31,202 nucleotides of DNA from a virus (lineage: Duplodnaviria; Caudoviricetes): IMG/VR virus record IMGVR_UViG_3300012667_000544, positions 1-31,202 of that record. One strand, 5' to 3'. The position numbers were made by a program, and so were the translations under genes. Numbering within the stretch: the first letter of the stretch is position 1; each line of letters begins with the position of its first letter. This document shows, one piece after another, positions 1 through 31,202 of the stretch. A model generated the notes under the pieces. The model was not told the origin of the DNA, made no database searches, and saw only the letters and a program-made list of their open reading frames with translations.

Positions 1-2
1 CA

Positions 3-1349
3 TATACTGTTATAGATACCCATATATTTTTCATCAAACATTAGGGTTGCACCATCTGTGTTGGTTTGTAAAAGCTTGGATCCTGGAATCATTAAGAGTA
101 GCTCTTCTACTAACATAGTAATCAATAATTGACCATTGATAGTAGTTTGCATAGTATACTGTGGATCAAATAACCATGAATATTCACTATTACTATTACC
201 ATAACTTGCATTAGCTGCTTCTTTAAACCCTTCAATAATAGCTATGTCTTTGTCTTGTTTTGGTTTAGCTTTCTCAGCTAACCTTACATCTACAATATCA
301 TGTTTATATACTTGAAAGAACTCTGACCCTAAATGGGCCGGATACATTCCATTCATACAAGCTATACTTGGATATAGAGATGCTACATCTAGATCCTTGA
401 TAATAATAGTACCTCCTGCTTTATAAATACCAGTTTCTATACACTGATGTATACCACCGGCACCATAGTCAAAGCTATAACCATTAAAATCCATGGTATA
501 CTTAAAGTCACTTTTTGTATTAGTGATTATCTTACCCTTTAACATTTCATGAAAGCCTTGAAAATCTATAGACTTAAACTCAATATATGGGAATAAAATA
601 TCTTTAATGTTTATACCATTCCTTCTAGTTCTTAGTTGTTTTACTTCATAAGGTTTTCTGCCAGTAGCTTCACAATATAACTTTAGTAATAGCTCACTTC
701 CTAGTTTAGTATTTGAGAAATTATAACAGTTTAACCCATACTTATTTTTAATTCTGTTTCTTACATCAATTAAAGGTTTAGATAAATGTAAAATCTGCTT
801 GGTAGAGACAACATCATTAATACAATAATCTACTACTGTTTGAATTTCTTCTTTTGTAGTAACTAAAGCAGTATGATGTATAGGCATGTCTTGAACATTA
901 GGAGAGTCCATTGAAAATTGGGCCCACTTTAGACTAGTTCTTTTGTTTGCATTATCCCAATGGTTTATCTTAAATACATCTATTTGTTGTATACTAAGTT
1001 TCCATTCAGGATAATCCAAGAATTCATTGTTGTTGGATTTCCTAATGACAGATTGAGCCTGCTCATAGATATGTTTTATTATTTCATTAACAGGAAGGTT
1101 CTTTAACTTTTTATGATTAACAAGAATAAATTCAGTAATCTGAGAGTCAAAAGCCAAACCATTAAATGATATATGCCATTCTTTATGTTCTTTATTATGC
1201 TGTAAGAATTTTACAAAGTCCTCATATTCATTTTGTAACTCATGAATAACAAAGATTTTTTTATCTTCATTCTTCCAATCAATAAATACTGCAACAAAAA
1301 GATTTTTCATGGTTTCATAATCCATGACATAGTTTGTTTTTTTGTCCAT
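3..1349 (-). CDS. polB: Family B DNA polymerase (5' part; truncated by the left window edge)
   Basis: Manual translation (not in the ORF track): ATG at 1349, MDKKTNYVMDYETMK (ExoI DxE), SFNGLAFD (ExoII), DLDVASLYPS (motif A), KEAANASYG (motif B), QTNTDG (motif C); start and motif C are in the same frame. Confidence 0.95.
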   Translation of the reverse strand, partial: MDKKTNYVMDYETMKNLFVAVFIDWKNEDKKIFVIHELQNEYEDFVKFLQHNKEHKEWHISFNGLAFDSQITEFILVNHKKLKNLPVNEIIKHIYEQAQSVIRKSNNNEFLDYPEWKLSIQQIDVFKINHWDNANKRTSLKWAQFSMDSPNVQDMPIHHTALVTTKEEIQTVVDYCINDVVSTKQILHLSKPLIDVRNRIKNKYGLNCYNFSNTKLGSELLLKLYCEATGRKPYEVKQLRTRRNGINIKDILFPYIEFKSIDFQGFHEMLKGKIITNTKSDFKYTMDFNGYSFDYGAGGIHQCIETGIYKAGGTIIIKDLDVASLYPSIACMNGMYPAHLGSEFFQVYKHDIVDVRLAEKAKPKQDKDIAIIEGFKEAANASYGNSNSEYSWLFDPQYTMQTTINGQLLITMLVEELLLMIPGSKLLQTNTDGATLMFDEKYMGIYNSI

Positions 1350-1366
1350 CTTATTAATATTAATAT

Positions 1367-1398
1367 AAAAAAAAGGGAGCAGATTTCTCTACTCCCTA
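1367..1398 (-). terminator. Intrinsic terminator-like hairpin
   Basis: Minus strand AGGGAGTAGA-GAAA-TCTGCTCCCT followed by a T run; one G-U pair. Confidence 0.8.
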
Positions 1399-1416
1399 TT
1401 AACCGCCATGGTTATA

Positions 1417-1842
1417 TTATGGCATGATGATAGAAGGCTTAGGAGCCTCTACTACAGCACCTTGAAAATGTTGCATATAATCAACCTTATCTGCATTTAC
1501 TGCAAAGGATTGAACAAATGCTATAATCTCAGCTTGATCAAGAATAAAATATTTCTGAAGTAATTCAGTCATTCTTCTTTCTTGTTTAACTGTAACTTGT
1601 TGACCAGTTTCCTCATCAACTTTAGGAGTTTTTCTCATTTCAGCATCTCCATTTTCATTTACTTTAGCAAACATAGCATACTCATTTCTCTTAAATGTAG
1701 AGGTAATCTCTAGAGCTTTTTTATCTCTGTTAAATACTACATCTAAGTAAGGGCAATCATTGCTTGCTGGAATCATTCTAAATGTATTAGAATCAGGAGA
1801 CCAAGGTGCTGTTACTAACAGCATTGTTTTTAAATTTGTCAT
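1417..1842 (-). CDS. Hypothetical protein
   Basis: 141-aa ORF in the operon direction, followed by a terminator. Confidence 0.85.
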   Translation of the reverse strand: MTNLKTMLLVTAPWSPDSNTFRMIPASNDCPYLDVVFNRDKKALEITSTFKRNEYAMFAKVNENGDAEMRKTPKVDEETGQQVTVKQERRMTELLQKYFILDQAEIIAFVQSFAVNADKVDYMQHFQGAVVEAPKPSIIMP

Positions 1843-1868
1843 TTTCTAGTTGGTTTAATTTTCACAAA

Positions 1869-2435
1869 TTAAATCAATTTTGAGGTGAATTCCAAATTTT
1901 TTATACTAGTTCTAAGAGTTTCTCTATCAAAATCAACAAGAGAACAAAGTTCCCCTACCTCTTTTAATACAGACTCATTTATCCCTATCATTTCAGAGTA
2001 CATTTTATAGTACTTTTCAGGATACATATAACTTTCAATATAAGCATAGTTAGAGTTAGTTCTACCGTAAAAGTTTTCTATTCTTCTTTTATAGTCACTA
2101 CTAAGCTTTGAATATTTACCAGATAAAATGCATTCCCAATCTTTAGAATAGGGGCTAAAATCAAAAACATAAACTCCTTTATTATCTTCAACCTGTTTGA
2201 AGTCATAAAAAAGTTTATTACCTAGTAATTTTTCTTTTTCAAACTGTGTAAATTCTGCATCATCTCTAAGATGATAGTGACAGATAAATTTTCTATCACT
2301 TAAACTATACTGGTTTTCCCAGCTCAGGTAAGTTTCAATAGGGGTTACACTAGAACCCCTCTTTATTTCCAATAGAGGGTACATAAATACCCTGCTTTTT
2401 TGGAAATAGTTTTTGTACAATGATTTTATGGCCAT
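1869..2435 (-). CDS. Hypothetical phage protein
   Basis: 188-aa ORF, co-oriented and closely packed. Confidence 0.85.
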   Translation of the reverse strand: MAIKSLYKNYFQKSRVFMYPLLEIKRGSSVTPIETYLSWENQYSLSDRKFICHYHLRDDAEFTQFEKEKLLGNKLFYDFKQVEDNKGVYVFDFSPYSKDWECILSGKYSKLSSDYKRRIENFYGRTNSNYAYIESYMYPEKYYKMYSEMIGINESVLKEVGELCSLVDFDRETLRTSIKNLEFTSKLI

Positions 2436-2445
2436 AATTATAAAT

Positions 2446-3474
2446 TTACAAAATTACTTGACTTGTAGCAAAGTTGTAAGGTAAACTATAATTATTATTC
2501 TTGTAATGCCAGTACATTTCATTTAATCTATCTGAAAGCTCAAAATCCCATATTTCTAAGGTGGTATCTGATACTTTAAAACAGTATACTTGATTGTACT
2601 TATCTATAACTATAAAGTTAAATACAACAGTCCATTCAGGAGTAATAATATGTTTATATACTTCTTTGACAAGTCTTGTGTAAATAGCTGCCTGGATACT
2701 GTAGTTATAGAATTTTACAGTTTCTGGGAAGTCTGTAATGGTCTTACCAGTGGTCTTTAAGTCATTGATATAAATAATCTTCTTATCATGATTGATTTGA
2801 ATACTATCTGCAACACCTTTAAGACCTATGTTATCTATTCCTACTGCATCTGAAGACAGTTCTATTTCATTAAACATGTCTATGTTTTCCATCTCTGATC
2901 TGTATAACCCTAGTAATTCACAAACTTTAGTGTCTGCTTTTAATAAGGTTACTGCTTCATTACATCTTTGTAATGTCTCTGAATCTATAAGGTCTCTATT
3001 ACCTTTAGATTTTAAGAATTCAAAATAACTAATAGTTTCTTCTGTAATAATCTTTGATAGTCTTTGATCATCTGTTTTGAGTGACTGGTGTAAATTGATT
3101 TCTTTAAGTATCTCTAGAATCTCCTTATTCATGTCAGTAAGTGCTAAGTCACTGGCTGGTTGAGGATCCATAGCTTTTACTATGCTGTGAATTCTATCAA
3201 TAACTAATCTTGAGTTGCCTGTTGGGAGAGTTGATGGTAAAAGTATGAAATTTTCATCAAATGAACCATCATTTAATAATAACCCATGGATAACTTTTCC
3301 ATCAATAAGATGTGAGTCAGTTCTATCTTCTCTTTGTTTAAGGATATAATGATTGTAAAACATCTTTGGTGAATACAATAATTTGTTTAAACCTGAATAA
3401 CTTATGTTAAAAGGTTTTGAGTAAAACTCCTGCTCTAATTCAGCAGGAGTCTTTGTATTAGGTATTTCTATCAT
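2446..3474 (-). CDS. PD-(D/E)XK exonuclease (RecE/exonuclease VIII-like)
   Basis: ISYSGL N-terminal motif, G..IH, KGVAD..., DLKTT and Y.IQAAIY motifs. Confidence 0.85.
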   Translation of the reverse strand: MIEIPNTKTPAELEQEFYSKPFNISYSGLNKLLYSPKMFYNHYILKQREDRTDSHLIDGKVIHGLLLNDGSFDENFILLPSTLPTGNSRLVIDRIHSIVKAMDPQPASDLALTDMNKEILEILKEINLHQSLKTDDQRLSKIITEETISYFEFLKSKGNRDLIDSETLQRCNEAVTLLKADTKVCELLGLYRSEMENIDMFNEIELSSDAVGIDNIGLKGVADSIQINHDKKIIYINDLKTTGKTITDFPETVKFYNYSIQAAIYTRLVKEVYKHIITPEWTVVFNFIVIDKYNQVYCFKVSDTTLEIWDFELSDRLNEMYWHYKNNNYSLPYNFATSQVIL

Positions 3475-4667
3475 GAATAAAAATTGTTTAAGGTTATTTC
3501 TGGTGTAGGTATTTCTGGTATTTCTGGTTCAGGCTCCTGAACTGGTAAAGCTACTACATCATGCTTAGCCATTGCTTTCTCTACCTCATCAGAATGAGTA
3601 ACTCCGGTTGCTTTAAAGTAGTCAGTTTCACCAGATTGATAAACTTCTTCAATAGCAAAAGGCATAATTAATGCAAGGTTTTCCCTAGTCATTATATCTT
3701 TTTTAATAAGAATTTTAACTATATCATCAAAGCTCATATAATCTCTAACAGTTATATCAAAAAACTTTAAAAAACTTTTAAAGTTTATATGATTTTTCAT
3801 ATCAGAGTTATACATTTTATTTTTATAATCTTTAACTAAGAATAGTAAGTAGATAGCAGATTTTAAATAATCACAATTAGCCATAGATTCCATAGCTACT
3901 CTATGATTACTATTATCATCACTTTCAAATAAATTCTTCATCCCTTCATAGATTTCTTTATCCATTACAAGTTCTGAATTTAACAGGCTTACCAAAGCAG
4001 ATTCATCATAAACATTACCATGATTTAATAATGTTAAATAGTCAGCTTCTTGTGTAGAATTTTCAAAATAATAAAAAGTACTATCTGAATCATATTCTAT
4101 TAATGTTTCATCAAATGGTATAATTTTATCATCATCATCATAGTTCTCAAGATCAGATCTTTCTAAAAATTCATATTTAGGTCCTTTAAAAGCTCCATAA
4201 TTTTTAATTTGATATATAAAACTACTATTTATAAGTACAAAATTAGCTGGTGAATTTTCTATATCTCTTATAAGTTCAGAAAGTTCATTACCATTATATC
4301 TTATTTTAACCTCAGCAAGATATTTTAACATTGCTCTTTTTGTAACAGAACAACCATAATCAAGTTTTTCAAAATAAGAATCTTTTATATTATCTTCATT
4401 AGTAAACCATATATTAGCTGTGTCTTTAAACTTTGCTACTGATAAATTGTTGGTTTCACAGAAACCCTTTACCTTAAATCTAGGTATATTACAATCAGGA
4501 AATATATATAACCTGTCTTTTGCAACAGGAACATATAAACCTTTAAGAACTTTTAATGAAGGACTTTCATTAAATACTTCTAAACTTTTGTATTCTAAAG
4601 TATTAGAATAACTATTATCCTTTATAGGTATCTTCTCTATATAGATACATTGTTCTTTATTGATCAT
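3471..4667 (-). CDS. Hypothetical protein carrying the shared MoxR-module domain; possible BRCT-like N-terminal region
   Basis: 398-aa ORF; segment LVMDKEIYEGMKNLFESDD...NCDYLKSAIYLLFL aligns with two neighbouring proteins. Confidence 0.85.
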   Translation of the reverse strand: MINKEQCIYIEKIPIKDNSYSNTLEYKSLEVFNESPSLKVLKGLYVPVAKDRLYIFPDCNIPRFKVKGFCETNNLSVAKFKDTANIWFTNEDNIKDSYFEKLDYGCSVTKRAMLKYLAEVKIRYNGNELSELIRDIENSPANFVLINSSFIYQIKNYGAFKGPKYEFLERSDLENYDDDDKIIPFDETLIEYDSDSTFYYFENSTQEADYLTLLNHGNVYDESALVSLLNSELVMDKEIYEGMKNLFESDDNSNHRVAMESMANCDYLKSAIYLLFLVKDYKNKMYNSDMKNHINFKSFLKFFDITVRDYMSFDDIVKILIKKDIMTRENLALIMPFAIEEVYQSGETDYFKATGVTHSDEVEKAMAKHDVVALPVQEPEPEIPEIPTPEITLNNFYS

Positions 4668-5142
4668 ATTTAGTAATTTTTATAGGTTCAACATTTAAAG
4701 CTAAGTGCTTATATTTTTCTTTTACAGTTATTACTACATCATAGAAAGTATTAGAACATTGAGTTTCAGTTCTTTCTATAATCTCCTCTTCTAGTTTTTG
4801 ATAAATCTCAGGAGTTAACCATCCTTGTGTATTAAGAAATTCAGCAAAAGGTCTTTCAGATTTTTGAGATATATGAAATAATCTTGAGTGATCTCTAAAG
4901 TTTCTACTAGCTTTAGTTCTTAGATTAACCATTCTATTTGCATACCAAGACTTTCTTGATAATTGCCATATCCAATAAATTGATTTCTCAATGTCACAGG
5001 TATTTAAGATTAACTGAGCCATTTTCCAGTCAGCTTCATCATTACTACTTAACATTTTAGCCAATGATTGACCTATTTCTTCATTTAATACAACAGCCTC
5101 TCCCTTTACAGGAGAAGCTGTTATTACTTTTTTGTCTTCCAT
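4657..5142 (-). CDS. Hypothetical protein carrying the shared MoxR-module domain
   Basis: 161-aa ORF; VVLNEEIGQSLAKMLSSNDEAD...TCDIEKSIYWIWQL. Confidence 0.85.
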   Translation of the reverse strand: MEDKKVITASPVKGEAVVLNEEIGQSLAKMLSSNDEADWKMAQLILNTCDIEKSIYWIWQLSRKSWYANRMVNLRTKASRNFRDHSRLFHISQKSERPFAEFLNTQGWLTPEIYQKLEEEIIERTETQCSNTFYDVVITVKEKYKHLALNVEPIKITKYDQ

Positions 5143-5145
5143 AAT

Positions 5146-6330
5146 TTATTTCATTGCCATTTTAACTACTTCTGCATTTAACATTAATTTCTGAAACTTA
5201 GCCTTGTTTGCATTGATTACTTTCTTCACAATGATATATTTTAAGTCATTAGTGAATACTTCACCTGTACAGAACTTAGTTAATCTTTCTGTAACAGCTG
5301 GTGTAATTGTGTTGTTCTCTGCATAGTTAGTAGTGAAGTTAATTAACCTTGTGGCTAATACACTTGCAATATCAGCTCTATAATCAGGACCTACACCAAT
5401 GCAGCTATTTAACTCACCAATGATATAAGATTCATTTTGGTGTAACAACATGTCTTTAGGAGTTACTAACTTATCTAATTTATTATTAATAAATGTAGTA
5501 AAGAAAGTACTAAAGTTTGGATTAGTGGTTGCCTCACCTAACTGCTGAATCAATGGTAACTGATCTGCAAAATTATCAATAGACATCAATGAGTTAAAGA
5601 ACATGGTTACAGTTCTTGCATTGATATCTTCAGCATCCATTAATTCTGGGTGTAATAACAAGAAGTTGATACATCTTGAGTCAATACCAGTCTTCTCTGC
5701 ATATCTAGCCCAAACATCTACATCAAACTTGAAGTTTACATTAATAACCCTAGTCTTTTGTGCACCATCCATTGCTGATACAGAATAATTACCATTATCA
5801 GGATTAGAAGTTAAGATAATCATAGAACCTTTAGGTAAACACCAGTTATTATAACATTGTGTCTCTAATAAGGTCATAGTAGCTTGAATGAATTTCTCAC
5901 TTGCTCTACTATAATCATCTAATAATAAAATCATTGGTGTTTCTTTACCATGAATCCACTCTGGAGCAGCATGAGTCATTCTCTTTTCTCCTGTTGGTTT
6001 AAAACCTCCTTGGATATACTGAGGAATTGCTCCTTCTACTACCCAGCGGATACTGTTATCTTTACCTTTCATCTCATGCTCTTTACATGGATAACCTACT
6101 AAGTCAGATACATCTTCTAACTCTGCTAAGTTCTTTCTAACTAATTCCATTCCTAGTTCATTAGCTAATTGCAAGATAGTAGAAGTCTTACCACCACCTG
6201 CTTCACCTTCTACATTTACTGCCTGTACAGGTAAACCTTTTTCAGTTAATAACTGATTATTTTTATATATATAATTTAAGAATGATTTTAATTCTTCTGA
6301 GTTTAAGCTGATTTTGTTTGTTGTTGACAT
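5146..6330 (-). CDS. MoxR-type AAA+ ATPase
   Basis: Walker A GEAGGGKT, Walker B LLLDDYSRA, sensor-1 LTSNP, arginine-finger region MDGAQKTR; adjacent to a VWA gene. Confidence 0.88.
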   Translation of the reverse strand: MSTTNKISLNSEELKSFLNYIYKNNQLLTEKGLPVQAVNVEGEAGGGKTSTILQLANELGMELVRKNLAELEDVSDLVGYPCKEHEMKGKDNSIRWVVEGAIPQYIQGGFKPTGEKRMTHAAPEWIHGKETPMILLLDDYSRASEKFIQATMTLLETQCYNNWCLPKGSMIILTSNPDNGNYSVSAMDGAQKTRVINVNFKFDVDVWARYAEKTGIDSRCINFLLLHPELMDAEDINARTVTMFFNSLMSIDNFADQLPLIQQLGEATTNPNFSTFFTTFINNKLDKLVTPKDMLLHQNESYIIGELNSCIGVGPDYRADIASVLATRLINFTTNYAENNTITPAVTERLTKFCTGEVFTNDLKYIIVKKVINANKAKFQKLMLNAEVVKMAMK

Positions 6331-6350
6331 ATACTTTATTTTTTTTATTA

Positions 6351-7583
6351 TTAATTTAATTGAATTTGTAGTCCTTGTAAATCTTCATTTAGACCATTAG
6401 ATTGACTTGATATTACCCATAGTACTGGACCTCTACATCTATCTGGTGCTGGAGCTTCTCCATCAGTAAGATAAATTAAACAATTATACTTCTTAGTATT
6501 TTGGTCATAGTAATCTGTTACTGGGTGAAAGCTAGTGCCTCCTCTACCATGTATTTCAAAATCCTTCTTAGGATCAAATTTACCTATATAAGATATAGAA
6601 CTATCACATTGAATAATAGTAACATCAGTTCCTGTTCTATTAATATGATATATCTCATTTAAGAATTCTTTTAGTTCATCAGTACTCACTGAGCCTGATG
6701 TATCTACAGCTAAAAGAATATGTCTTCTGTGTTTGTGTTTTAAACCTGGATTCTCAATAAATCTGAAATTAGGTTTATGTCTTGACATCTTAGTAAATGT
6801 CTTGATGGAACCACCAACAAATCTTCTTAAATATCCTCTCCAATTAAATTTAGGAGGTTCTATTTGAGATAATCTACTAATGATCTCAGCCATCTCTCCA
6901 GGGATTGTTCCCCTAGATTTTGTTACTTGATCTACAACTTCTTTTAAGATGTGTTCAGTCTGTGTTTTAATCAACTTCTTAGTTGCTTCATCTAATCCTT
7001 CAAACTCTGACCATGTACTATGATCAGGAACATTTACTTCAACTTCACCTTTTCCATTAATACTTACTTGTACTTTAATCTGACCTTCTCCTTCTCCTTC
7101 ACAATCACCTGCTCCTAGTACTTTATCTAGATTAGGACAAGTTCCTGAGTTTTGTGCAGCCTGCATTAACTTATCATAATAATACTGAGTACCTCTTTTA
7201 GGTTCTAAGTTTAGTTCTGGAAAAGTCTCTAGTAACATTGGCCCTGGAGGTAGATGATCTTTATCAATATATTGATTGATCTCAATATCCATAGCAATGT
7301 TGGATACTTTTCTATCAGTTAAGTGCTCATAATCTGTAATGTGAAAGAATGCAATATGCAATAGCTCATGTTTTAATAAGCCTATATGCTGTTTTGCTTC
7401 TAGTTCATTCCAGAACTCTTCATTAAGATATAACTGATAGTTAACACCTAATCTACTTACACCTGCTGTGGGTACTTTTGTACTCCATTGTTTGTTCAAC
7501 ATAATGAGAAAGAGACCATAAAATGGTTCCTTCAGCATTAGATCTTTACTAGCCTTGGCTAACTCTTCACTTTTGTTTTTCAT
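6351..7583 (-). CDS. Metallopeptidase-like (HExxH) plus VWA domain protein (DUF2201-type)
   Basis: HELLH motif, MIDAS AVDTSGS, GRGGTSF, YLTDGE. Confidence 0.9.
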   Translation of the reverse strand: MKNKSEELAKASKDLMLKEPFYGLFLIMLNKQWSTKVPTAGVSRLGVNYQLYLNEEFWNELEAKQHIGLLKHELLHIAFFHITDYEHLTDRKVSNIAMDIEINQYIDKDHLPPGPMLLETFPELNLEPKRGTQYYYDKLMQAAQNSGTCPNLDKVLGAGDCEGEGEGQIKVQVSINGKGEVEVNVPDHSTWSEFEGLDEATKKLIKTQTEHILKEVVDQVTKSRGTIPGEMAEIISRLSQIEPPKFNWRGYLRRFVGGSIKTFTKMSRHKPNFRFIENPGLKHKHRRHILLAVDTSGSVSTDELKEFLNEIYHINRTGTDVTIIQCDSSISYIGKFDPKKDFEIHGRGGTSFHPVTDYYDQNTKKYNCLIYLTDGEAPAPDRCRGPVLWVISSQSNGLNEDLQGLQIQLN

Positions 7584-8025
7584 TATCTTTAACTTTTATA
7601 AATTTTAATGTAAACTCTAAATCATCTACAAAGTCAAATGCTTTTTGTAAACCCTCTTTTAAGAACTTACTAAAGTCTGCCAAAAAAAAATTTAAACATT
7701 CTTCTTTGTTAGGTTGAGTTTTAATGACCTCAAGTATATGAGCATGTTTGATCATATTATTAGTAGGTTCAAAACCTAAAGATCCATGATAGTCTAGTAC
7801 TTTTTGGCAATTAGCTTTCCACATAGAATATGAAGCATTAGCGTTTTTTCTTAAAAATAATGTATAGATTAAAGATTTCTTTTGATCTACATTATTAAGA
7901 CATTCAAAAGCTACTATTTTATCTTCATCATCTCCATTAAACATACTTAGCAAAGTATCATAAGATTCAGTATCTAAAACCAGTTTATCTTTTAGTCCTC
8001 TATTTTTAATGTTCTTGTCATCCAT
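7567..8025 (-). CDS. Hypothetical protein carrying the shared MoxR-module domain
   Basis: 152-aa ORF; LVLDTESYDTLLSMFNGDDED...NVDQKKSLIYTLFL. Confidence 0.85.
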   Translation of the reverse strand: MDDKNIKNRGLKDKLVLDTESYDTLLSMFNGDDEDKIVAFECLNNVDQKKSLIYTLFLRKNANASYSMWKANCQKVLDYHGSLGFEPTNNMIKHAHILEVIKTQPNKEECLNFFLADFSKFLKEGLQKAFDFVDDLEFTLKFIKVKDNEKQK

Positions 8026-8336
8026 GTTGTTTTTGTATTATTTACTATATTATCCATCCATTCCTTTGCTGAAGGAATATAATTATTACAGTCTTCTTTG
8101 ACATGTTGTTCTCCAATGTATCTTATGTATACTCTTTTACCTACAGAGTTAATCATAAATTTTCCAAAGATTTCTTCCAATTGAAAGATACCTTCAGAGT
8201 GGTGCCTAAACATCCTGTGATAGGAGTGACCTACCCAAGCTTTAGTTTCATCAAACCATTCATGATATTTTAAATACTCATCAGGTTCCCCTCCCCACTT
8301 TTTTGAGGATGAAATACTATGTGCATATGGATGCAT
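7992..8336 (-). CDS. His-rich protein, probably DUF6915 family
   Basis: HPY.HS.SS.KKWGG...H.WFDETK...HR..RHH.EGIF...EQHV.ED pattern recognised from memory. Confidence 0.7.
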   Translation of the reverse strand: MHPYAHSISSSKKWGGEPDEYLKYHEWFDETKAWVGHSYHRMFRHHSEGIFQLEEIFGKFMINSVGKRVYIRYIGEQHVKEDCNNYIPSAKEWMDNIVNNTKTTWMTRTLKIED

Positions 8337-8369
8337 TTTTTTTCTAATTTTAAATTTTAATAAAATAAT

Positions 8370-8780: not shown

Positions 8781-8790
8781 GGTATATTTT

Positions 8791-8814
8791 TTAATGATCA
8801 TATGGATGAGACAT
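8791..8814 (-). pseudogene. Truncated 5' duplicate of the 7992..8336 gene (MSHPYDH*)
   Basis: ATGTCTCATCCATATGATCATTAA coupled by TAATG to the upstream gene; shares CATCCATATGnnCAT with the start of 7992..8336. Confidence 0.6.
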
Positions 8815-9164: not shown

Positions 9165-9165
9165 A

Positions 9166-9588
9166 TTATTTTACTTTATAAAATCTACCTAGGATGTTAC
9201 CATTTAAATAAAGATCATCTTCTAATACACCTGATAAAAACTGATGCTTTACCTCCTGGTAAGTTAATTCAGTTTTGCTATAGCATATTTTAAGTATATA
9301 TCTTTGGATAACTACACCATCTTTATGTGCTTTCTTAAGTACATCATTACTACTATAGTAGTTTTGATAGGCAGACTTTGTTACTACTTTATATTTTTTA
9401 AGTCTCTTATCTGTAGAGATAGCCTTTTTGGCTAGTTTTTTCTTAGTATTAGAAAAGAAGTTCTTCTTTCCTATATAACTAACAGCTTTACCATTAATGA
9501 TAGCTGACATCTGATATACAAATCCTACAGCACCATCTGGAATATCTTTGTCTTCAAAGACTTTTCCTCCACTAAGTATCCAACTCAT
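9166..9588 (-). CDS. GIY-YIG family nuclease (compact phage type)
   Basis: GFVY...SYIGKK, YYSS, conserved E (YQEV), LNGNILGRFY. Confidence 0.8.
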   Translation of the reverse strand: MSWILSGGKVFEDKDIPDGAVGFVYQMSAIINGKAVSYIGKKNFFSNTKKKLAKKAISTDKRLKKYKVVTKSAYQNYYSSNDVLKKAHKDGVVIQRYILKICYSKTELTYQEVKHQFLSGVLEDDLYLNGNILGRFYKVK

Positions 9589-9785: not shown

Positions 9786-9966
9786 TTTTAGGGTATTCTT
9801 TAAACCATTTTAATATATCTGTATGTATATTACCATTACTATCTCCACAGTTATGATCAAGATCCTCATTTATAATATCTTGAATATTTGAATATATAGC
9901 TTCTTCTTCTGTTTCCCAGATAGAATTATCTGCAGACTTATATGCTTTTATTTGTTGTATTTTCAT
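9718..9966 (-). CDS. Hypothetical protein
   Basis: 82-aa ORF, ATGA-coupled to the primase gene. Confidence 0.75.
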   Translation of the reverse strand: MKIQQIKAYKSADNSIWETEEEAIYSNIQDIINEDLDHNCGDSNGNIHTDILKWFKEYPKSVRYIQLNISKLLPSRFDGDNE

Positions 9967-10946
9967 TGTAAGGCTTGTTTTAATAATGGGGTTAATGTTT
10001 GTTTTACTTTTATTATACCATGGTCTTTTATTGAATCACTAAGATCTTTTGACATATCTAATATTACCTGAGGAATATCATATTTGTTTTTATATTTCTT
10101 CATAGATTCAATGCCCGGGGCATCATTGTCAAATAGTGTACATATACCTTTATATTTGTGTTTATAAGCACTAATCATATGTTCTGGTATTAATATGTTT
10201 TCACTATCAGGAGCTATAGCCTCTGCATTTTTATAACCTAATTTAGTAAAGGCCATGATATCTTTCAATGAACTACATATAATCAAATATGGTACTGTCA
10301 TAGTCAATTGATCTGAACCTTGGATATAATCTTTAACTTTAATGAATTTGTAATCTTTTACATAGGGGTGATAAATCTTATACAGTGTCCCATCTTTTCT
10401 AAAATAGCCATAGCTATTATTACTTTTAATTGTAATCTCTTTAACTTGGTCATCTTCTTCTTTTTTAATAGTGTAATTCAGTAGAGGAGCCACTTTATAA
10501 AATTCTAATAATTTAGAACCTATGTGAAACTTAGTCCAGAATTTTTCATCAATGTTAGTCCATGCTCTTTCAGTAAAATCTACTACTTGATACTTAGATT
10601 TTTTCTTAAAATCTCTTGCACTATAATCCTCATCATGAGTAAGAATAAACTTACCATAATCTTGCATGATTTTATGAGCAGTTTCACCCCTGGTACTTAG
10701 TTTAAATAACTCTTGAACAAGATCTAAAGCATCTCCAGTTTTACCACTAGAGAAATCCTTATACCTATAAACAGTGCTATTAGATAAAAATATATACATT
10801 GAGGGATTTTTATCAACAGGATTAAATGCTGATTTTATTTTTACATCTTGACCAGTTAGTTTTTCTGTCAAGTTTAAATAATATTCAAAAACCCATTCTC
10901 TGGGTACATCAGTTATAGATGTTATTATTGATTTTGTACTCAGCAT
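9963..10946 (-). CDS. DNA primase (TOPRIM, crAss-like type)
   Basis: Degenerate zinc-binding-domain region (SAFNPVDKNPS...YKDFSSGKTGD), TOPRIM LIICSSLKD and LFDNDAPG, C-terminal KDLSD. Confidence 0.85.
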   Translation of the reverse strand: MLSTKSIITSITDVPREWVFEYYLNLTEKLTGQDVKIKSAFNPVDKNPSMYIFLSNSTVYRYKDFSSGKTGDALDLVQELFKLSTRGETAHKIMQDYGKFILTHDEDYSARDFKKKSKYQVVDFTERAWTNIDEKFWTKFHIGSKLLEFYKVAPLLNYTIKKEEDDQVKEITIKSNNSYGYFRKDGTLYKIYHPYVKDYKFIKVKDYIQGSDQLTMTVPYLIICSSLKDIMAFTKLGYKNAEAIAPDSENILIPEHMISAYKHKYKGICTLFDNDAPGIESMKKYKNKYDIPQVILDMSKDLSDSIKDHGIIKVKQTLTPLLKQALQ

Positions 10947-10957
10947 AAGTGTAATGT

Positions 10958-10982
10958 AAAAGGGGAGTTATTAGCTCCCCTT
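10958..10982 (-). terminator. Hairpin / probable weak terminator
   Basis: AAGGGGAG-7 nt-CTCCCCTT with a short T tract, after the SSB-like gene. Confidence 0.6.
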
Positions 10983-10987
10983 GGTTA

Positions 10988-11716
10988 TTAAAGATCAAAA
11001 TCTGAACCTCCAGAACCGATAAGATCAGATCCAGAATCCATAGCAGAACCTCCAAGACCTGGAGAAGGGCTTTCTCCAAATTCAGTAACTGTTTCTACTT
11101 TCTTCTTTTTAATATGGTCTTCAGGTTTAAACTTTAAAAGTTTACTTGGACTTGCTTCTGCAGATTCCAAAGATATACCTTCTTTACTATACTTAGGTAA
11201 AAACAATTCATAACCAGTATAACCACCTTTATTAGTATATTCTTTACCTGCTATACAGAAGTTATAAAATGTACCTTTAAATGGTTTGTCTTTAGCTAAA
11301 GCTTTAAAGAATGATTCAATTGTATCATGCTTACCTTCTTGCTTATCTAACCATGCCATGCAACCTGTGTTGATACAGAACTGCTTTAATGCTTTTAACA
11401 TCTCTTGGTCTCTGTCTACAGGAATACCAGATTTAGTTTCTCCATCTGCAAAAGCCCATTCAGATAATTTAACTGTACCTACTTTACCAGCATGTCTTCC
11501 TAACTCAGGCTTATCTTTGTCAATATAGAAACCTTCAAAGTCAGCTCCTAAGTCTTCACCTTCCACATTTAATACAATGTGATAAGCTCCTTCTTTAAAC
11601 TTGAACTCTTCAAGAGATACATTGTTAATTTTACACAAGTGATTTCCTGGTTCTAATGTTTTTACTACACCTTCTCCACCAACCTTGATGTCTTTTGTAC
11701 TTAATTTTCCGCTCAT
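10988..11716 (-). CDS. Probable single-stranded DNA-binding protein
   Basis: LEPGNH..KI..V OB-like start; Gly/Ser/acidic tail ending SDFDL; lies between annealing protein and primase. Confidence 0.6.
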   Translation of the reverse strand: MSGKLSTKDIKVGGEGVVKTLEPGNHLCKINNVSLEEFKFKEGAYHIVLNVEGEDLGADFEGFYIDKDKPELGRHAGKVGTVKLSEWAFADGETKSGIPVDRDQEMLKALKQFCINTGCMAWLDKQEGKHDTIESFFKALAKDKPFKGTFYNFCIAGKEYTNKGGYTGYELFLPKYSKEGISLESAEASPSKLLKFKPEDHIKKKKVETVTEFGESPSPGLGGSAMDSGSDLIGSGGSDFDL

Positions 11717-11736
11717 TTTATTTATTTTTTATAGGG

Positions 11737-12366
11737 TTATTTTACTTCTGTTGCTGTTATATTAATTACTTCTGCTATAGTACCATCTTCATTCCTTCTC
11801 ACATCAGATTCTTTTAAGAATGTATCAGCCATTTCTTCTGCTGTATATAAACCTAATAATAAATCTGCACCTATTCTGTTGGCACCTTTTGCTATACATC
11901 TAGCATATAACATTTCTCTTGGCATTCTTTTCCAGTTGTCTTTAGTAGTTAAACCTTGACCTTCTGCATCTTTCCAAGTAAAACTACAAGATTCTTCCAT
12001 CTCATCTCTTACAAATACAATAGTAGTTCTTCTGTCAATTGGCTTTGTACCATCTGGCTTAGGAGCTATACTATCTACTGACCCATCAGGATATACAAAT
12101 ACACCATCTTCTTTGGTATAAAACTTTACACCACCTTTTCTTAATAGTGCACCTGTAGCTTTTGCTGACAAGCTTAACTTACCTTGAATAGGTATAATGT
12201 AGTGAAATGCTTGCATTGTAGGGAATCCTAACTCTTTACCCATCTGGGCAATAGTGAAGGCATCTTCCACAGTTTTAATGTGGGTTGGTAGTTTCTTTGA
12301 ATCTATCAAAGTACTTAGAAATTGCTTAAGAGCACTTTCTGTTGAGGTTGTTACTTGGTTTTCCAT
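11737..12366 (-). CDS. RecT/Bet-like single-strand annealing protein
   Basis: G.ELG...MQA...I..IQGK and NWKRMPREMLYAR...GLYTAEEM motifs. Confidence 0.7.
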   Translation of the reverse strand: MENQVTTSTESALKQFLSTLIDSKKLPTHIKTVEDAFTIAQMGKELGFPTMQAFHYIIPIQGKLSLSAKATGALLRKGGVKFYTKEDGVFVYPDGSVDSIAPKPDGTKPIDRRTTIVFVRDEMEESCSFTWKDAEGQGLTTKDNWKRMPREMLYARCIAKGANRIGADLLLGLYTAEEMADTFLKESDVRRNEDGTIAEVINITATEVK

Positions 12367-12945
12367 TTATTTGCTTTTTATAATTTCATTTAACCATTCT
12401 TTTCTACTCACAGGTTTCTTCAATATAATAGCAGCAAAATCTCTGATAGTCATCTCTGTTATAGGAGCTTCCTTATCTGTTAATATTACTGGGTTACTAA
12501 GATCAAAACCACTGTTTTCAATTATTTCTTTTTCTGCATCTGTTTCAATAATCACCTCCTGTTTCTTAACAGTGGAATTATCTTCTTGATTGTATCTCTT
12601 GATAACTATTAATTCTGATATTGGAATAAGATATCTTACTTTAGATGGATCAGCATCTTGAGTTCTTTCATATTCTTCTCCAAAATGTGGGTTAAATTTC
12701 CACATATACAATGCTCTATCTTCTGCTTCTGGAACAATATCTCTAGTAGTTGCCTCTATAAAAATATCATTACCTCTACTTATTTCACTATGAAAAAAAC
12801 TTGTATAAAGTTCTGATTTACCACTAGGCTGATAAACCAATTTTCCATATAATGTGGGATTTACTAATCCCATTTTTTCAAATGTTGGCTGATGAAACTC
12901 CCTGAGTCTCTTGCCATTTTCTTTTTTGTCTTGCATTACTAACAT
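12367..12945 (-). CDS. Hypothetical protein
   Basis: 192-aa ORF within the replication operon. Confidence 0.85.
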   Translation of the reverse strand: MLVMQDKKENGKRLREFHQPTFEKMGLVNPTLYGKLVYQPSGKSELYTSFFHSEISRGNDIFIEATTRDIVPEAEDRALYMWKFNPHFGEEYERTQDADPSKVRYLIPISELIVIKRYNQEDNSTVKKQEVIIETDAEKEIIENSGFDLSNPVILTDKEAPITEMTIRDFAAIILKKPVSRKEWLNEIIKSK

Positions 12946-12947
12946 GA

Positions 12948-13955
12948 TTATATTCTTAATGTTCTGTCTTGTGTTGGAGGTGCGTCAATTGAGTGCAATC
13001 TCATTTTATTATACTCTGTTCTAAAGAAAGCTAAACCAGTATCACCATTTCTTGATTTAAGAAAATGCATAGCTAATATTTCAGGATCTCTGTTTACAAT
13101 ATATCTTTCTACACCATAAAATTTAATTTTCTGTTTACCAGGTCTATTAAGTCCTATTAGTGTATCTGCATGCTGAAGTAAAGCATCAGCACCAAATATA
13201 TCAGATTCAAGAATAAAGTTACCATATTTACCATCTTCATTTCTCTCAGGGCTATCTATATTTCTATTAAGCTGGCTAAGTATGATGAAGGCTATTGGGT
13301 ATCTTTTTTTCAAGTAAGTAAGAGCTTCACCTAATGAATTTAACATATCATTCTTATCTTTCTCTCCTTTACCTTTCTTTAATAACAAAGAGTGATCTAA
13401 AGTAATCATAGTATTAGTATACATTCTTTTAGTAACATCTCCTGTTTTAACTAAAGTAGAGTGTAATAACATATACTCATGAATAATTTCTTTAAATTCT
13501 TCTACAGTACATGGTTCTTCTACAATATCAATAGGTCTTTCTTTTATAGCTTTAGCATAAAGTCTACAGTTTTCAAATTCTTCATCAGTAAGTATACCTG
13601 TTACCATATCAGCACTACAAAGTTGTTTATAACTTCTACCTATATGACTAGAATATTCTCTGATAATAGAGTTTCTACCTAACATTTCTAATTGAAACTC
13701 AAGTACTCTAAATTTTATTTCTGGATTATAAGCAAATGCACCATTAACTATCAAAGTTTTGATAATAGTCTTACCAGTTGCTGGTCTTGCACCAATAACA
13801 GTAGTACTATGCCACTCTATACCATCTAATGTTGCATTGTTAAAACTAGGCCAAGGAGTTTTGATACTTGTAATTGTTCCCTCTTTTCTACCTTTTAAAT
13901 AAGACAAGGATTCATTGAGAGCATCTATTTGAGGCTTCCATTTTATTTGACTCAT
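12948..13955 (-). CDS. dnaB: DnaB-type (SF4) replicative helicase, ATPase domain only
   Basis: GARPATGKT, FQLEM, ITLDH, LSQLNR, QHAD, KSRNG. Confidence 0.92.
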   Translation of the reverse strand: MSQIKWKPQIDALNESLSYLKGRKEGTITSIKTPWPSFNNATLDGIEWHSTTVIGARPATGKTIIKTLIVNGAFAYNPEIKFRVLEFQLEMLGRNSIIREYSSHIGRSYKQLCSADMVTGILTDEEFENCRLYAKAIKERPIDIVEEPCTVEEFKEIIHEYMLLHSTLVKTGDVTKRMYTNTMITLDHSLLLKKGKGEKDKNDMLNSLGEALTYLKKRYPIAFIILSQLNRNIDSPERNEDGKYGNFILESDIFGADALLQHADTLIGLNRPGKQKIKFYGVERYIVNRDPEILAMHFLKSRNGDTGLAFFRTEYNKMRLHSIDAPPTQDRTLRI

Positions 13956-13989
13956 ACTTTTTTTGATTATTGTTTGTTGGTTCTTTTAG

Positions 13990-13997
13990 CAAATTTA
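13990..13997 (-). promoter_or_regulatory. Bacteroidota sigma70 -7 element
   Basis: TAAATTTG matches TAnnTTTG; intergenic, upstream of the helicase gene. Confidence 0.6.
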
Positions 13998-14015
13998 ATA
14001 AAAAAGGATGATATT

Positions 14016-14633: not shown

Positions 14634-15036
14634 TTTTTATTATATTATATACTTTTATTGTTTCCTCATCATTAAATTTCAAATAATTAGTAATAGTTTT
14701 TACACCATGTAATATAGTTGAATGATTATATTTAAAGTATCCTGACATAACAGTATAAGTATACCCCATATCATATAATATTTTAAACATTACATGTCTA
14801 TAAATAATGATATGTTTTAATCTTGTTTTAGATCTTATAGTATAATCAGTATCATAGGTTTTTTGTAAGATATCATTGATTATATTTTCTATAGTAACTA
14901 AAGATACTGTTCTAATTTTAGTTTTGCTCAAGGTATAAAGAACTGTTGGATATACACCATAAGTTAAATAAAAATCTTTACAGAATTTACTTACCTCTTC
15001 TTTTGCTTGATTTTTTAATTTTTCATCATTTACCAT
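14563..15036 (-). CDS. DnaA C-terminal (domain IV)-like HTH protein
   Basis: SKTR..II.YRH.......Y...G.T...SGYF..NHSTILHGVKTI resembles the DnaA 'RDHTTVLHA' signature region. Confidence 0.75.
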   Translation of the reverse strand: MVNDEKLKNQAKEEVSKFCKDFYLTYGVYPTVLYTLSKTKIRTVSLVTIENIINDILQKTYDTDYTIRSKTRLKHIIIYRHVMFKILYDMGYTYTVMSGYFKYNHSTILHGVKTITNYLKFNDEETIKVYNIIKNEIAKENEPSVVIQHDSRGEIDT

Positions 15037-15749
15037 ATTATTTTTTCATTAAACTGTTTTTGAACAAGGTCACTTACTTGGTTAAACATATTATTACAAT
15101 CCCATGAAGGAAGGTCTTTATATGCTGCTGAAGCTGGATGACTTGTGAATATTTTGTAACTACTGTTATCTGGTACAACTTCAGACCATTCTTGTGCTTT
15201 CTTACCCATAAATACATATATTAACCCTGGATGATTATAAGTTAAATAATCAAATAGAAATGACATAAAAGGTTTCCATATATCATAATGAGAACCTACC
15301 TTATAAATGGTAGTAGTTAATGCACAATTGGTCATTAGGATACCTTGATTTGACCATCTGGCTAAATCTGGGTCCCATAAATGACCATCAGGATATACAG
15401 TTTCATCTAATGCCTTAAAGATATATCTTAAAGAAGCTTCTGGTTTACCTATATTACTACAACTAAATGCTATTCCATCTGCAACATATGGTTGAGGATA
15501 ACTATCCTGTCCCATTATTACTACTTTAAGATTATTTATAGGACATTGTTCAAATGCTCTAAATACTTGTTTTAAAACAGGAGTAAATCTCTTTCCTTCT
15601 CTGGCTTCTTCTAGTAACTTATTAAGTACAATGTTAAAATCATCACTAAGAATAAAAGTTTTAAGCTTATCTCCCCAGCCTGATGGTTTTAGGTTTTCAT
15701 ATAATTTAGTTTTTACTTCATCTAAATTAATATTGTCTAGTTTATTCAT
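15030..15749 (-). CDS. ung: Uracil-DNA glycosylase, family 1
   Basis: VFRAF, KVVIMGQDSY, ADGIAFS, W..QGILM.N.ALT, SHPAS. Confidence 0.93.
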   Translation of the reverse strand: MNKLDNINLDEVKTKLYENLKPSGWGDKLKTFILSDDFNIVLNKLLEEAREGKRFTPVLKQVFRAFEQCPINNLKVVIMGQDSYPQPYVADGIAFSCSNIGKPEASLRYIFKALDETVYPDGHLWDPDLARWSNQGILMTNCALTTTIYKVGSHYDIWKPFMSFLFDYLTYNHPGLIYVFMGKKAQEWSEVVPDNSSYKIFTSHPASAAYKDLPSWDCNNMFNQVSDLVQKQFNEKIIW

Positions 15750-15755
15750 TTTTTA

Positions 15756-15763: not shown

Positions 15764-15767
15764 CAAC

Positions 15768-26613: not shown

Positions 26614-26631
26614 AATATTAAAGTTGGTTAG

Positions 26632-26703
26632 TGGTTCCACATGGACTCGAACCATGAATACAAGCTTAGAAGGCTAGTGTTATATCCCTTTAACTATAGA
26701 ACC
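26632..26703 (-). tRNA. tRNA-Arg(UCU), CCA not encoded
   Basis: Acceptor GGTTCTA/TGGAACC, D arm GTTA...TAAC, anticodon loop CTTCTAA, T arm CATGG-TTCGAGT-CCATG. Confidence 0.93.
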
Positions 26704-29113: not shown

Positions 29114-29115
29114 AG

Positions 29116-29482: not shown

Positions 29483-30315
29483 AATAAAGGTATTATATGG
29501 TTATTAATTGCTATTTGAGAGCTGTCTATAATATGACACATTCTTTTAAGTTCTTTGCATGCTTGCAGTATTTTACCAGAACCTCCAAATGGGTCTAATA
29601 CCCAGTCTCCTATTTTAGTAGCTTGTTCTACTAAGGTTCTGATCATAGGATATGGTTTTGCAGAGGGATATTCTTTAAGATTTGGTATTTCTTGAAAGTC
29701 AATCACCCATTGGCTAAGGTTATCTACCTGTCCACTTTTACTAAACACATAAATATGTTCAGGAGGCATAAGGTATTTACCCATGTTCATTCTGTTACCA
29801 GTACTCCAAAGCTTTGTATAAGATCCTGTTCTGTTACACATCTTTAAAGATGATTTACTGAACTCTTTCATATATCTATCATGAGCAGGCTTACTGGTTT
29901 TTCCTGAGGTAAACATGAATAATAATGGACTATTGTCCTCCTTGAGTAATGTCTCAAGCTTAGTTATAAGATCTCCAAATTGGGTAGGAGATATTTTATC
30001 ACAGGAGAATAGGTCTCTATTACCACCTTTTTGGCCGGCAGCATCATAGGGTATATCTAAGAAGATAAAATCAAATAAATCACCCTGGCTAATCATGTCA
30101 TCTACTATTTGCATAGTATCTCCATGTTGAACAATAGCTTCTGATGAGATATATAATCCTTTATCTAGTTTAGTGATACCTTTACCTACATTCTCATATA
30201 CTCTACCTCTAATTGTTGTTTGAGCAATGTCAGGAAACTTTGTATAAAGCTCCCTCATACTCATCTGTTGACTAGTACTTTTAAGTACTTCAAGTATTCT
30301 TTGTCTTAAGCTCAT
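29479..30315 (-). CDS. Beta-class amino (N6-A/N4-C) DNA methyltransferase with N-terminal winged HTH
   Basis: Motif IV FLDIPY precedes YPSAKP and motif I VLDPFGGSG; the first ~57 aa are wHTH-like. Confidence 0.85.
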   Translation of the reverse strand: MSLRQRILEVLKSTSQQMSMRELYTKFPDIAQTTIRGRVYENVGKGITKLDKGLYISSEAIVQHGDTMQIVDDMISQGDLFDFIFLDIPYDAAGQKGGNRDLFSCDKISPTQFGDLITKLETLLKEDNSPLLFMFTSGKTSKPAHDRYMKEFSKSSLKMCNRTGSYTKLWSTGNRMNMGKYLMPPEHIYVFSKSGQVDNLSQWVIDFQEIPNLKEYPSAKPYPMIRTLVEQATKIGDWVLDPFGGSGKILQACKELKRMCHIIDSSQIAINNHIIPLL

Positions 30316-30316
30316 A

Positions 30317-30790
30317 TTAGTCTTGTTTTTTAGTTGGTGGATTATAGTTCTCTGCTAACCAGCACTCAATCATAAGTGGTGGTGCTCCCATAGGTACTTT
30401 TTGAGCATCTCTATAGAACTCTCTGATTATTTCTTCCCAGGCTTGTTCTCTTAATTGGTCAAGTCTAGTAGGATATGCAGGTTCATCAAACTCAGGCATT
30501 GGTTTAAAGTTTACAGTTATATCACCTTCCTTCATGGTTAACCAGGAAGCATTAACTAAATACTCCTTACTTACAAGTTTAGCATATTTGTTAATGCTGT
30601 TGCTAGGAAAGTCTACAATCTCAAATTCTACTTCTAGCCCTTCATTAGAGTCATACAACATTAATCCATCTATATGACCATTGTCTATTAGAGGTAGTAT
30701 TCTTACTCTTATGCTGCCATGATAAAGCTCATCTTTAACATGGTACCATACCTGCCAACCATTTTCTGTTTTATGCAGTGTTCCTTTCAT
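30317..30790 (-). CDS. Hypothetical phage protein
   Basis: 157-aa ORF. Confidence 0.8.
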   Translation of the reverse strand: MKGTLHKTENGWQVWYHVKDELYHGSIRVRILPLIDNGHIDGLMLYDSNEGLEVEFEIVDFPSNSINKYAKLVSKEYLVNASWLTMKEGDITVNFKPMPEFDEPAYPTRLDQLREQAWEEIIREFYRDAQKVPMGAPPLMIECWLAENYNPPTKKQD

Positions 30791-30791
30791 A

Positions 30792-31151
30792 TTAGTCTTC
30801 TTTGTTTATTAAATCTCTAACTACATGCACATAAATAGCATCAGTCTTCTTAGTAAAGTAGGCAGCGGAGCCAAAGTCAAAGCTGAAGGCCCACACATAG
30901 TCTGAACTGTACTCCAAACTAGTCCAATAGTAGTCTCCATCAATTAATTTATCTTTATAAATCATAAAACACTCTTCAATAGTTGGTAATCTCCAACCAT
31001 TTCCAAGCTTTTTAACAGCTTTAACAGCTTTATCCCAAGTCATTTCTCCTAAACTATCTGGGTATAACTCAAAGTGATAATGCTTATCAACTATTTTAGA
31101 TTGTTTAATCACAGGTGTATATTCCACACCATCTATTATTATGTTTTTCAT
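30792..31151 (-). CDS. Lcl/DUF1566-like (C-type lectin fold) domain protein
   Basis: MTW..A......GWRLPTIEE...YWTS.E.....W.F.F..G......K.....V..VR. Confidence 0.8.
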   Translation of the reverse strand: MKNIIIDGVEYTPVIKQSKIVDKHYHFELYPDSLGEMTWDKAVKAVKKLGNGWRLPTIEECFMIYKDKLIDGDYYWTSLEYSSDYVWAFSFDFGSAAYFTKKTDAIYVHVVRDLINKED

Positions 31152-31201
31152 TAGTCTTTGTTTAGTGAGTTAATACCTATACTTGGAATGATTATTTTGT
31201 A
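31151..31201 (-). CDS. 3' end of a gene entering from the right edge
   Basis: ...YKIIIPSIGINSLNKD*, TAATG-coupled to the next gene. Confidence 0.5.
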   Translation of the reverse strand, partial: YKIIIPSIGINSLNKD

Positions 31202-31202
31202 A

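Follow-up and report, generated by a model that had tools for sequence, protein, structure and literature searches.

A selection-maintained purge of an asymmetric CG word in crAss-like phages and a candidate nuclease in their virion cargo

Introduction

Why does a phage genome lose nearly every CG dinucleotide, and what keeps it from regaining them? The question is raised by IMG/VR record IMGVR_UViG_3300012667_000544, a stretch of 31,202 nucleotides (analysed over its full length and hereafter called the window) that forms the replication arm of a freshwater phage of the crAss-like kind, so far uncultured (Duplodnaviria; Caudoviricetes). A first-pass annotation noticed the lack of CG and offered two causes, selection by a CG-recognising host defence or mutational decay through CpG methylation. 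The purge of CG is genuine and extreme, it extends across the lineage, and selection on an asymmetric three-base DNA word maintains it. Selection was rightly proposed, decay through methylation was not, and host defence is one of two live readings. The other, to which we give a probability of about 0.38, is a steady selection on the phage lineage against A/G/T-C-G, imposed by the phage’s own sequence-reading nuclease.

CG depletion in the window

The window contains 25 CG dinucleotides against 697 expected from its base counts, a symmetrised odds ratio of 0.035, in agreement with the early estimate of about 25 where several hundred would be expected. The odds ratios of all remaining dinucleotides lie between 0.92 and 1.26, and TG/CA, at 1.10, is lower than AG/CT, at 1.26. 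GC dinucleotides are as common as had been stated (731 copies, ratio 1.02); GATC, also described as common, occurs 63 times yet is mildly under-represented (0.64 of the Markov expectation, z -3.6). The surviving CGs, whose gaps show no departure from random, are located as follows.

Surviving CGs 1-9: 339, 458, 1404, 2066, 3605, 6047, 7842, 9740, 10116
Surviving CGs 10-18: 11017, 11710, 12983, 14253, 14625, 17769, 19834, 21659, 22241
Surviving CGs 19-25: 22331, 23224, 26648, 27952, 28015, 30036, 30866

The depletion persists under codon control. By codon phase, 7, 4 and 10 CGs are present in 8,568 codons; across codon junctions there are 10, compared with 175 +/- 11 after synonymous shuffling, and outside open reading frames 2 where 30 are expected. 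Because it is equal across codon junctions and in spacers, the depletion is not explained by codon bias. Arginine is encoded by AGA or AGG at 282 of 289 positions, and CGN codons account for the other 7, as against 167 of 451 in two high-CG relatives.

The avoided word

CCGG provides 8 of the 25 surviving CGs (expected share 0.023, p 6e-8); these are the eight sites named in the first-pass annotation, each found within 1-2 bases of the position given there. A 5' C or 3' G is present at 18 of the 25 CGs, which bears out the claim that most survivors lie in a CCG/CGG context. Counted by half-site, 5' C occurs on 26 of 50, with 0.15 expected (p 1e-9), and the coding strand tolerates it just as the template strand does. 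Each of the 16 NCGN words is under-represented, palindromes no more so than non-palindromes and CCGG least; the two strands are affected symmetrically, and early regions no differently from late ones. In five low-CG genomes, the codon-controlled ratios are 0.62 for CCGG, 0.09/0.06 for words with one tolerated side and 0.02 for words with none, approximately the product of two per-orientation weights. The window fits this per-orientation model (deviance 7.7 on 6 degrees of freedom (df), versus 50 on 9 df for a uniform model), and the pooled set fits it less well (39 on 6 df).

Avoidance follows an asymmetric word: A/G/T-C-G is lost in either orientation and C-C-G is tolerated. Such a per-orientation pattern is the signature expected from a protein reading an asymmetric three-base DNA site. 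The early suggestion of a context-dependent pressure, drawn from the CCGG bias, holds as far as context is concerned; CCGG as a site in its own right does not matter, the rule being per-orientation. The word also differs between lineages. One relative, G016 (L150-L152), is nearly free of GCG and TCG and retains ACG and CCG, avoiding G/T-C-G only (weights A 0.61, C 0.67, G 0.02, T 0.03; deviance 5.1 on 6 df), a marine clade avoids chiefly TCG, and phages DAC15, cr106_1 and G071 avoid all CG.

Selection or mutation

Close strain pairs were aligned, and silent C/T and G/A sites in a CG-forming context were compared with controls, local divergence being treated as a mixture. In a two-state equilibrium model, the multiplier by which CG loss is raised equals the odds ratio k if hypermutation acts, S/(1-exp(-S)), with S = ln k, if selection does, and 1 if only gain is reduced. 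The model assumes equilibrium, some genomes enter several pairs and the survivors may be constrained; in the final set, L112/L001 and L025/L027 were removed and L002/L125 was taken in place of L002/L004 to reduce overlap. In six pairs of the low-CG clade (11 CGs kept, 15 differing, 2,184 non-CG sites), the best multiplier is 3-4 and selection predicts 3.65; hypermutation (35) is rejected, with a change in log-likelihood (dlnL) of -19.5 to -27, and a multiplier of 1 is rejected weakly (dlnL -5.9). In 13 pairs of the mid-CG clade (374 kept, 301 differing, 8,947 non-CG sites), the best multiplier is 2.0, where selection predicts 2.04 and hypermutation 5.2; hypermutation is rejected at dlnL -96 to -108 and a multiplier of 1 at -27. 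In three pairs that are 98-99% identical, CG-creating differences occur at 0.41 of the control rate (36/5,526 versus 228/14,180, p 3e-8), which is the value predicted by selection.

The CG depletion is held by selection and not by methylation decay, silent CGs being rarely gained and lost 2-4 times faster. At four-fold sites, the transition share of lost CGs equals the control share. A search for a C5 methyltransferase on the phage side, as the first-pass annotation had advised, found PF00145 in 0 of 20 near-complete relatives, and among 39 viral records of the clade only in G038, with a CG ratio of 0.62. The loss of arginine CGN codons also counts against mutational decay, because transitions cannot remove these codons silently. 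With these results, the rejected hypermutation and the lack of transition excess, the methylation-decay proposal largely falls, for a host enzyme on indirect evidence. We are highly confident of the joint claim that is formed by the depletion, its independence of codon phase, its strand symmetry, the per-orientation rule and the selection-fitting substitution rates.

The lineage and its relatives

The window is a 26%-complete fragment with nearly all genes on the minus strand, and its relatives were gathered through its MoxR-like ATPase. Near-identical strains are present in 20 runs from 15 studies, predominantly freshwater; contigs from 4 of the 20 runs, compared with window positions 1-16000, represent near-identical freshwater strains with 1,417 differences. 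Among long relatives, G001 (102 kb) and G002 (96 kb) come closest; their CG ratios are 0.046 and 0.045, uniform along each genome, and the ATPase of G001 is 90% identical to that of the window. The structural and cargo features of crAss-like phages are seen in these relatives, the window itself being without structural or cargo genes. G001 encodes a crAss-like terminase, portal and capsid (phrog_6681, 6547, 11589), with capsid matches to phi17:2, csAssE-Sib and cr106_1, and giant proteins of the cargo/RNA polymerase block with 1,823, 3,673 and 1,122 amino acids; G002 likewise has the terminase, portal and capsid genes and giant cargo-type proteins. Two G001 structural genes (L085:5559-7184 and L085:13444-15063) are richer in CG, with 7 and 10 copies, and CGT makes up 31 of the 44 CGN codons of this genome, which suggests that in highly expressed genes translation offsets the purge.

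Comparison with related phages, also advised early, places the near relatives at 0.045 and shows a wider clade with ratios up to about 0.9. Eighty ATPase-defined loci range from 0.04 to 0.59, further sets from 0.015 to 0.92, and the wider clade from 0.01 to 0.9. Among cultured and reference phages, the values are 0.03 for crAss001, 0.09 for IAS, 0.11 for cr128_1 and 0.01 for cr106_1 (like those of DAC15 below, from partial stretches of 20-90 kb), 0.45 for phi14:2, 0.26-0.81 for five C. baltica phages, and 0.58-0.88 for crAss002, Bc11 and csAssE-Sib. The trait is common to the PolA phage crAss001 and the PolB window. Two phages of Bacteroides thetaiotaomicron differ sharply, the crAss-like DAC15 (0.007-0.028) and the siphovirus SJC01 (1.39); since they stand at 0.02 versus 1.39 on one host species, the pressure follows the phage lineage. 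Related contigs are binned with Chitinophagaceae and Phocaeicola, yet also with unrelated bins, and two candidate host contigs from a Chitinophagaceae bin have a CG ratio of 0.54. In a primase tree, which was not built for classification, the aquatic clade stands apart from Steigviridae and Suoliviridae.

A candidate nuclease in the virion cargo

The 1,823-residue protein of G001 contains a predicted PD-(D/E)XK domain that is shared with crAss001 gp47 and DAC15 gp61, the latter being its best outside match. It lies at about residues 1088-1292 in G001, 1683-1891 in gp47 and 1886-2100 in gp61. A profile search recovered it from giant proteins in 16 of the 18 near-complete relatives, six of them contributors of profile rows, with motifs G..D, AG.xD, IxDxK and Q..Y intact; the two without it are G049 (CG 0.74) and G023 (0.39). 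It is also present in crAss001 gp47, DAC15, IAS, cr128_1, cr106_1 and three Suoliviridae. The profile did not find it in G049, G023, G004, G055, G005, phi14:2, phi17:2, csAssE-Sib or non-crAss controls, and in crAss002 and Bc11 it matched only stand-alone proteins of 340 amino acids. The catalytic D and DxK are invariant in 24 of 24 rows, and PF12705 scores above its cut-off in G002 and G046. The domain model (24 rows, mean confidence pLDDT 69) gives weak structural matches to AdnAB, AddAB, Cas4-like and MGME1 nucleases, the best at E 1.5e-3 and none below 0.001; a sequence search of the PDB with the domain profile gave nothing below E 0.008, and a domain query against IMG/VR returned only the self-match.

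Possession of the domain goes with loss of TCG. In a first tally, 30 of 36 bearers and 1 of 10 non-bearers had a TCG ratio below 0.2; with an independent PolB-derived set and two marine genomes added, the figures are 36 of 43 and 2 of 11. The tally omits partial genomes whose first cargo gene is off the contig or unchecked (G016, G018, G033, G038, G056, G072, G083 and other fragments) and counts G068 together with G066. Two non-bearers with high CG, G049 and G004, are placed between low-CG bearers by the primase tree, with branch support of 86-92%. A comparison of G056 (L296) with G050 (L211) points the same way: their replication genes share 66-91% nucleotide identity and their cargo proteins 28% amino acid identity, and their TCG ratios are 0.60 and 0.15. 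Exchanged blocks are intermediate, and in shared blocks TCG content is graded with identity, as if exchanged DNA drifts toward the resident regime; the first cargo gene of G056 is off the contig, and the swap covers the RNA polymerase as well.

According to the available text of Bayfield et al. (2023, PMC10172136), gp47 of crAss001 was found in virions by mass spectrometry, and its ejection ahead of the DNA was proposed; the accessible part of Yutin et al. (2021, PMC7886860) describes a PDDEXK domain in the large transcription-block protein of crAss-like phages without an assigned function. If the phage’s own nuclease is the selecting agent, the cargo protein would leave the virion before the phage DNA, and the predicted nuclease domain of that protein would attack D-C-G, by cutting or nicking, in the DNA of the host or of competitors. 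What protects the phage would be lack of the word, not its methylation, and lineages that swap or lose the cargo module would change or relax the avoided word. As far as sequence can tell, the cargo PD-(D/E)XK domain remains the sole named candidate; that this domain in particular is the nuclease is doubtful.

Several observations weigh against this proposal. G071 (L339-L345), complete at 121,257 bp, has a CG ratio of 0.011, the lowest among the whole genomes compared, and retains no CCGG and carries no C5 methyltransferase; no domain was detected in it, its cargo homologue skipping the segment, and a Pfam scan of 94 small and 10 large open reading frames found an endonuclease VII-like gene as the only nuclease family. 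The cargo module is deleted in G005 (CG 0.15, TCG 0.06), the partner of the window in the primase tree (88%). Conversely, five bearers are only weakly depleted (cr4_1 0.56, cr1_1 0.64, cr124_1 0.74, G045 0.68, G035 0.55), their catalytic motifs are intact and no other strongly avoided word was found in them, except GCC in G035. Across the group, low CG does not require the domain, which G071 and G005 lack, nor does the domain suffice for it, as these five weakly depleted bearers show. There is only one independent contrast on well-supported branches and four on all, and the independent-pairs test is underpowered; with one such contrast, the association of domain and TCG is not significant after phylogeny. 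The modelled fold appears to be of the RecB/AddAB/Cas4/MGME1 kind, mostly sequence-nonspecific nucleases, and to our knowledge the AdnAB/AddAB/Cas4-like/MGME1 group is not known for site specificity. The window carries no cargo genes, and no closer long relative was found; a search for a long contig of its own species gave just three 3-kb contigs. Finally, in the four most independent low-CG pairs a multiplier of 1, a pure drop in gain, is not rejected (dlnL -1.2), and per-site selection is weak (population-scaled about 3.5), with around 100 CGs remaining per genome.

Side observations were made on these genomes. Swappable domains of the SLOG/DprA-like, phrog_2072 and polynucleotide-kinase types are found in giant cargo-type proteins at the following loci.

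L099:7066-19986, cargo protein with swappable domains
L217:15393-20000, cargo protein with swappable domains
L212:7750-19998, cargo protein with swappable domains
L092:7043-10330, cargo protein with swappable domains

In G071, L339:10242-10547 is a dATP/dGTP diphosphohydrolase-like gene, and SLOG is encoded as a gene of its own. The cargo domain of G035 (L160-L163) has a large insertion, also seen in G050, and this genome avoids GCC/GGC words more strongly than CG (GGCC 0.01, AGCC 0.13). In the crAss-like contig G045:C111 (L223), the domain is broken by four TGA codons, which suggests TGA recoding; cr4_1 and cr124_1 show TAG.

Other genes of the window and rejected candidates

The genes recognised in the window are listed below.

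3..1349, minus strand, family B DNA polymerase, N-terminal 449 amino acids, cut by the window end (phrog_1252, E 4e-96)
2446..3474, minus strand, stand-alone PD-(D/E)XK exonuclease of the replication block
5146..7583, minus strand, MoxR-like ATPase and VWA/metallopeptidase pair
9166..9588, minus strand, small stand-alone GIY-YIG protein (PF19835)
9963..13955, minus strand, DnaG-type primase, RecT-like annealing protein and DnaB helicase
15030..15749, minus strand, uracil-DNA glycosylase
26631..26703, minus strand, tRNA-Arg(TCT), decoding AGA, with the surviving CG 26648 in its T-loop
29479..30315, minus strand, N6/N4-type DNA methyltransferase, not C5

ClpS, an SF2 helicase and small genes are also present. 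The sole sizeable plus-strand gene (15768-16082) adjoins the glycosylase gene and is conserved in relatives, and two small genes (8303-8793 and 9720-9962) are strain-variable, being missing from population contigs. Core proteins without a family are encoded at 1417-1842, 1869-2435 and 14016-14633; an ESM Atlas query with a core protein of 188 amino acids returned only unnamed clusters.

A number of candidates were rejected as the cause of the depletion. Four viral loci with homologues of the N6/N4 methyltransferase have CG ratios of 0.14-0.63, and the gene is absent from the sequenced parts of G001 and G002. It belongs to a phage-specific family with 119 homologues, and mild GATC depletion (0.49-0.64) is common to the window and 3 of the 4 viral methyltransferase loci. 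The distribution of the small GIY-YIG protein is unrelated to CG level; the glycosylase is a core gene whether relatives are high or low in CG, and so is the replication-block exonuclease. No gene presence/absence marker was found among proteins of up to 700 amino acids in 21 genomes. A two-site enzyme or priming sites would show as even spacing or pair avoidance of CGs, and the gaps are random in the window, G001 and G002. CCWGG, with 22 copies in the window, is not among the depleted words. DarT1 was set aside too, the available part of its description (PMC11543638) giving no consensus motif.

Alternative explanations

A tentative but serious alternative is a host defence of Bacteroidota that reads N-C-G and from which only crAss-like phages escape, by losing the word. 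One form would be a nuclease or DNA-modifying toxin, triggered by infection, to which host DNA falls victim as well; another would be the pooled effect of the many CG-containing restriction sites that a wide host range brings with it. According to the accessible text of PMC6286503, it is in non-temperate dsDNA phages that site avoidance is strongest. A host defence also accounts for CG-free genomes without the cargo domain (G071, G005), lineage-specific words could track different hosts, and classical four-base avoidance occurs in the group: CCGG and GGCC have dropped to zero in phi14:2, and in crAss002 the same is nearly true of GATC and GGCC. However, SJC01 is CG-rich on the host species of DAC15; CCGG, the word that survives, is a frequent target of restriction, and among NCGN words the purge is equally hard on those that are not palindromes. 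The ratio of 0.54 in the Chitinophagaceae-bin contigs implies that a constitutive CG cutter would need methylation, which is not seen as decay, and no consensus motif is described for DarT1 in the accessible text of PMC11543638. On the host side no gene emerged as a candidate.

An unlikely alternative is another phage-intrinsic reader, namely the virion RNA polymerase block, a core protein that lacks annotation, or replication and repair that rarely create CG. G071 and the words particular to single lineages would be accounted for, several core proteins belong to no family, the G056/G050 swap includes the RNA polymerase, and pure gain reduction survives in the four most independent pairs. Set against this, no small gene family tracks low CG across 21 genomes or 67 loci, the trait occurs in both PolA and PolB phages, strand symmetry and early/late uniformity are unlike a transcription effect, and a multiplier of 1 is rejected in the six low-CG (-5.9) and the mid-CG (-27) pairs.

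Methylation and codon effects are very unlikely even when taken jointly. Mutational decay, in which C5 methylation of CG by an enzyme of phage or host is followed by deamination to TG/CA, is a known cause of CG loss in Mycoplasma penetrans (as cited in the available text of PMC11282364), and may apply to phi17:2, where gp028 (L143:14720-16012) is annotated as a C5 methylase of PF00145, the CG ratio is a uniform 0.26 and no cargo domain is present, possibly a separate, mutational route to low CG. For the window it is highly improbable, with a TG/CA excess of just 1.10 and the results on strain pairs, transitions, CGN codons and PF00145 given above. Selection on codons, tRNA or RNA (AGA preference or an RNase reading CG), with which tRNA-Arg(TCT) and the AGR bias agree, is barely credible and as a sole cause is refuted by equally depleted junctions and spacers and by a 5' rule that is the same on both strands.

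Comparison with known systems

The purge resembles the restriction-site avoidance of non-temperate dsDNA phages (Rusinov et al., 2018, PMC6286503, in its available part) in the genome-wide selective loss of a short word. In contrast to what that text describes, the crAss-like word has 2-3 bases, is asymmetric and is not an orthodox Type II palindrome, the palindrome CCGG survives, another phage on the same host species shows no avoidance, and there is no known cognate enzyme. The loss by selection is the same, but the word is not a 4-8 bp, usually palindromic site; the purge works like restriction-site avoidance without the site that defines it. CpG loss caused by M.MpeI in Mycoplasma penetrans (cited in PMC11282364, seen through its available text) is likewise an extreme CG deficit in an AT-rich prokaryotic genome, whereas in the crAss-like clade near-complete relatives have no C5 methyltransferase, there is no transition excess and the rates fit selection. 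The accessible part of that article also ties bacterial CpG bias to temperature. No account of a CG purge in crAss-like phages was found in the open-access literature, the supplements of which could hold dinucleotide or domain tables.

The domain described by Yutin et al. (2021) and Bayfield et al. (2023) is of the same class and in the same location as the cargo domain considered here. As far as their available texts go, neither function, specificity nor a link to genome composition is given, and the link put forward in this work is correlative and has clear exceptions. Polyvalent phage proteins (Iyer et al., 2017, PMC5512222, likewise in its available part) are large and modular with swappable effector domains, like the relatives’ cargo block with its SLOG/DprA-like and kinase domains; that part mentions neither crAss-like phages nor a restriction-fold domain.

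That selection keeps phages of CG-tolerant bacteria at a CG ratio of 0.01-0.05 implies a protein that reads unmethylated N-C-G. Such a protein would belong to a new form of bacterial immunity or else be a phage weapon from which the phage is safe because its genome lacks the sequence, and one domain of about 200 residues can be named as a candidate. The question can be tested at the bench at once, because the trait reaches the cultured phages crAss001 and DAC15, which have hosts, and there is a CG-rich control, SJC01. If true, a 3-bp CG-directed nuclease would also be a useful reagent.

There is a functional likeness with bacteriophage T4, whose endonucleases II and IV degrade host DNA and which is itself spared by base modification. 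The discrimination of self from non-self would be similar in crAss-like phages, with the difference that the sparing would come from the absence of the word and that the enzyme is proposed to arrive with the virion.

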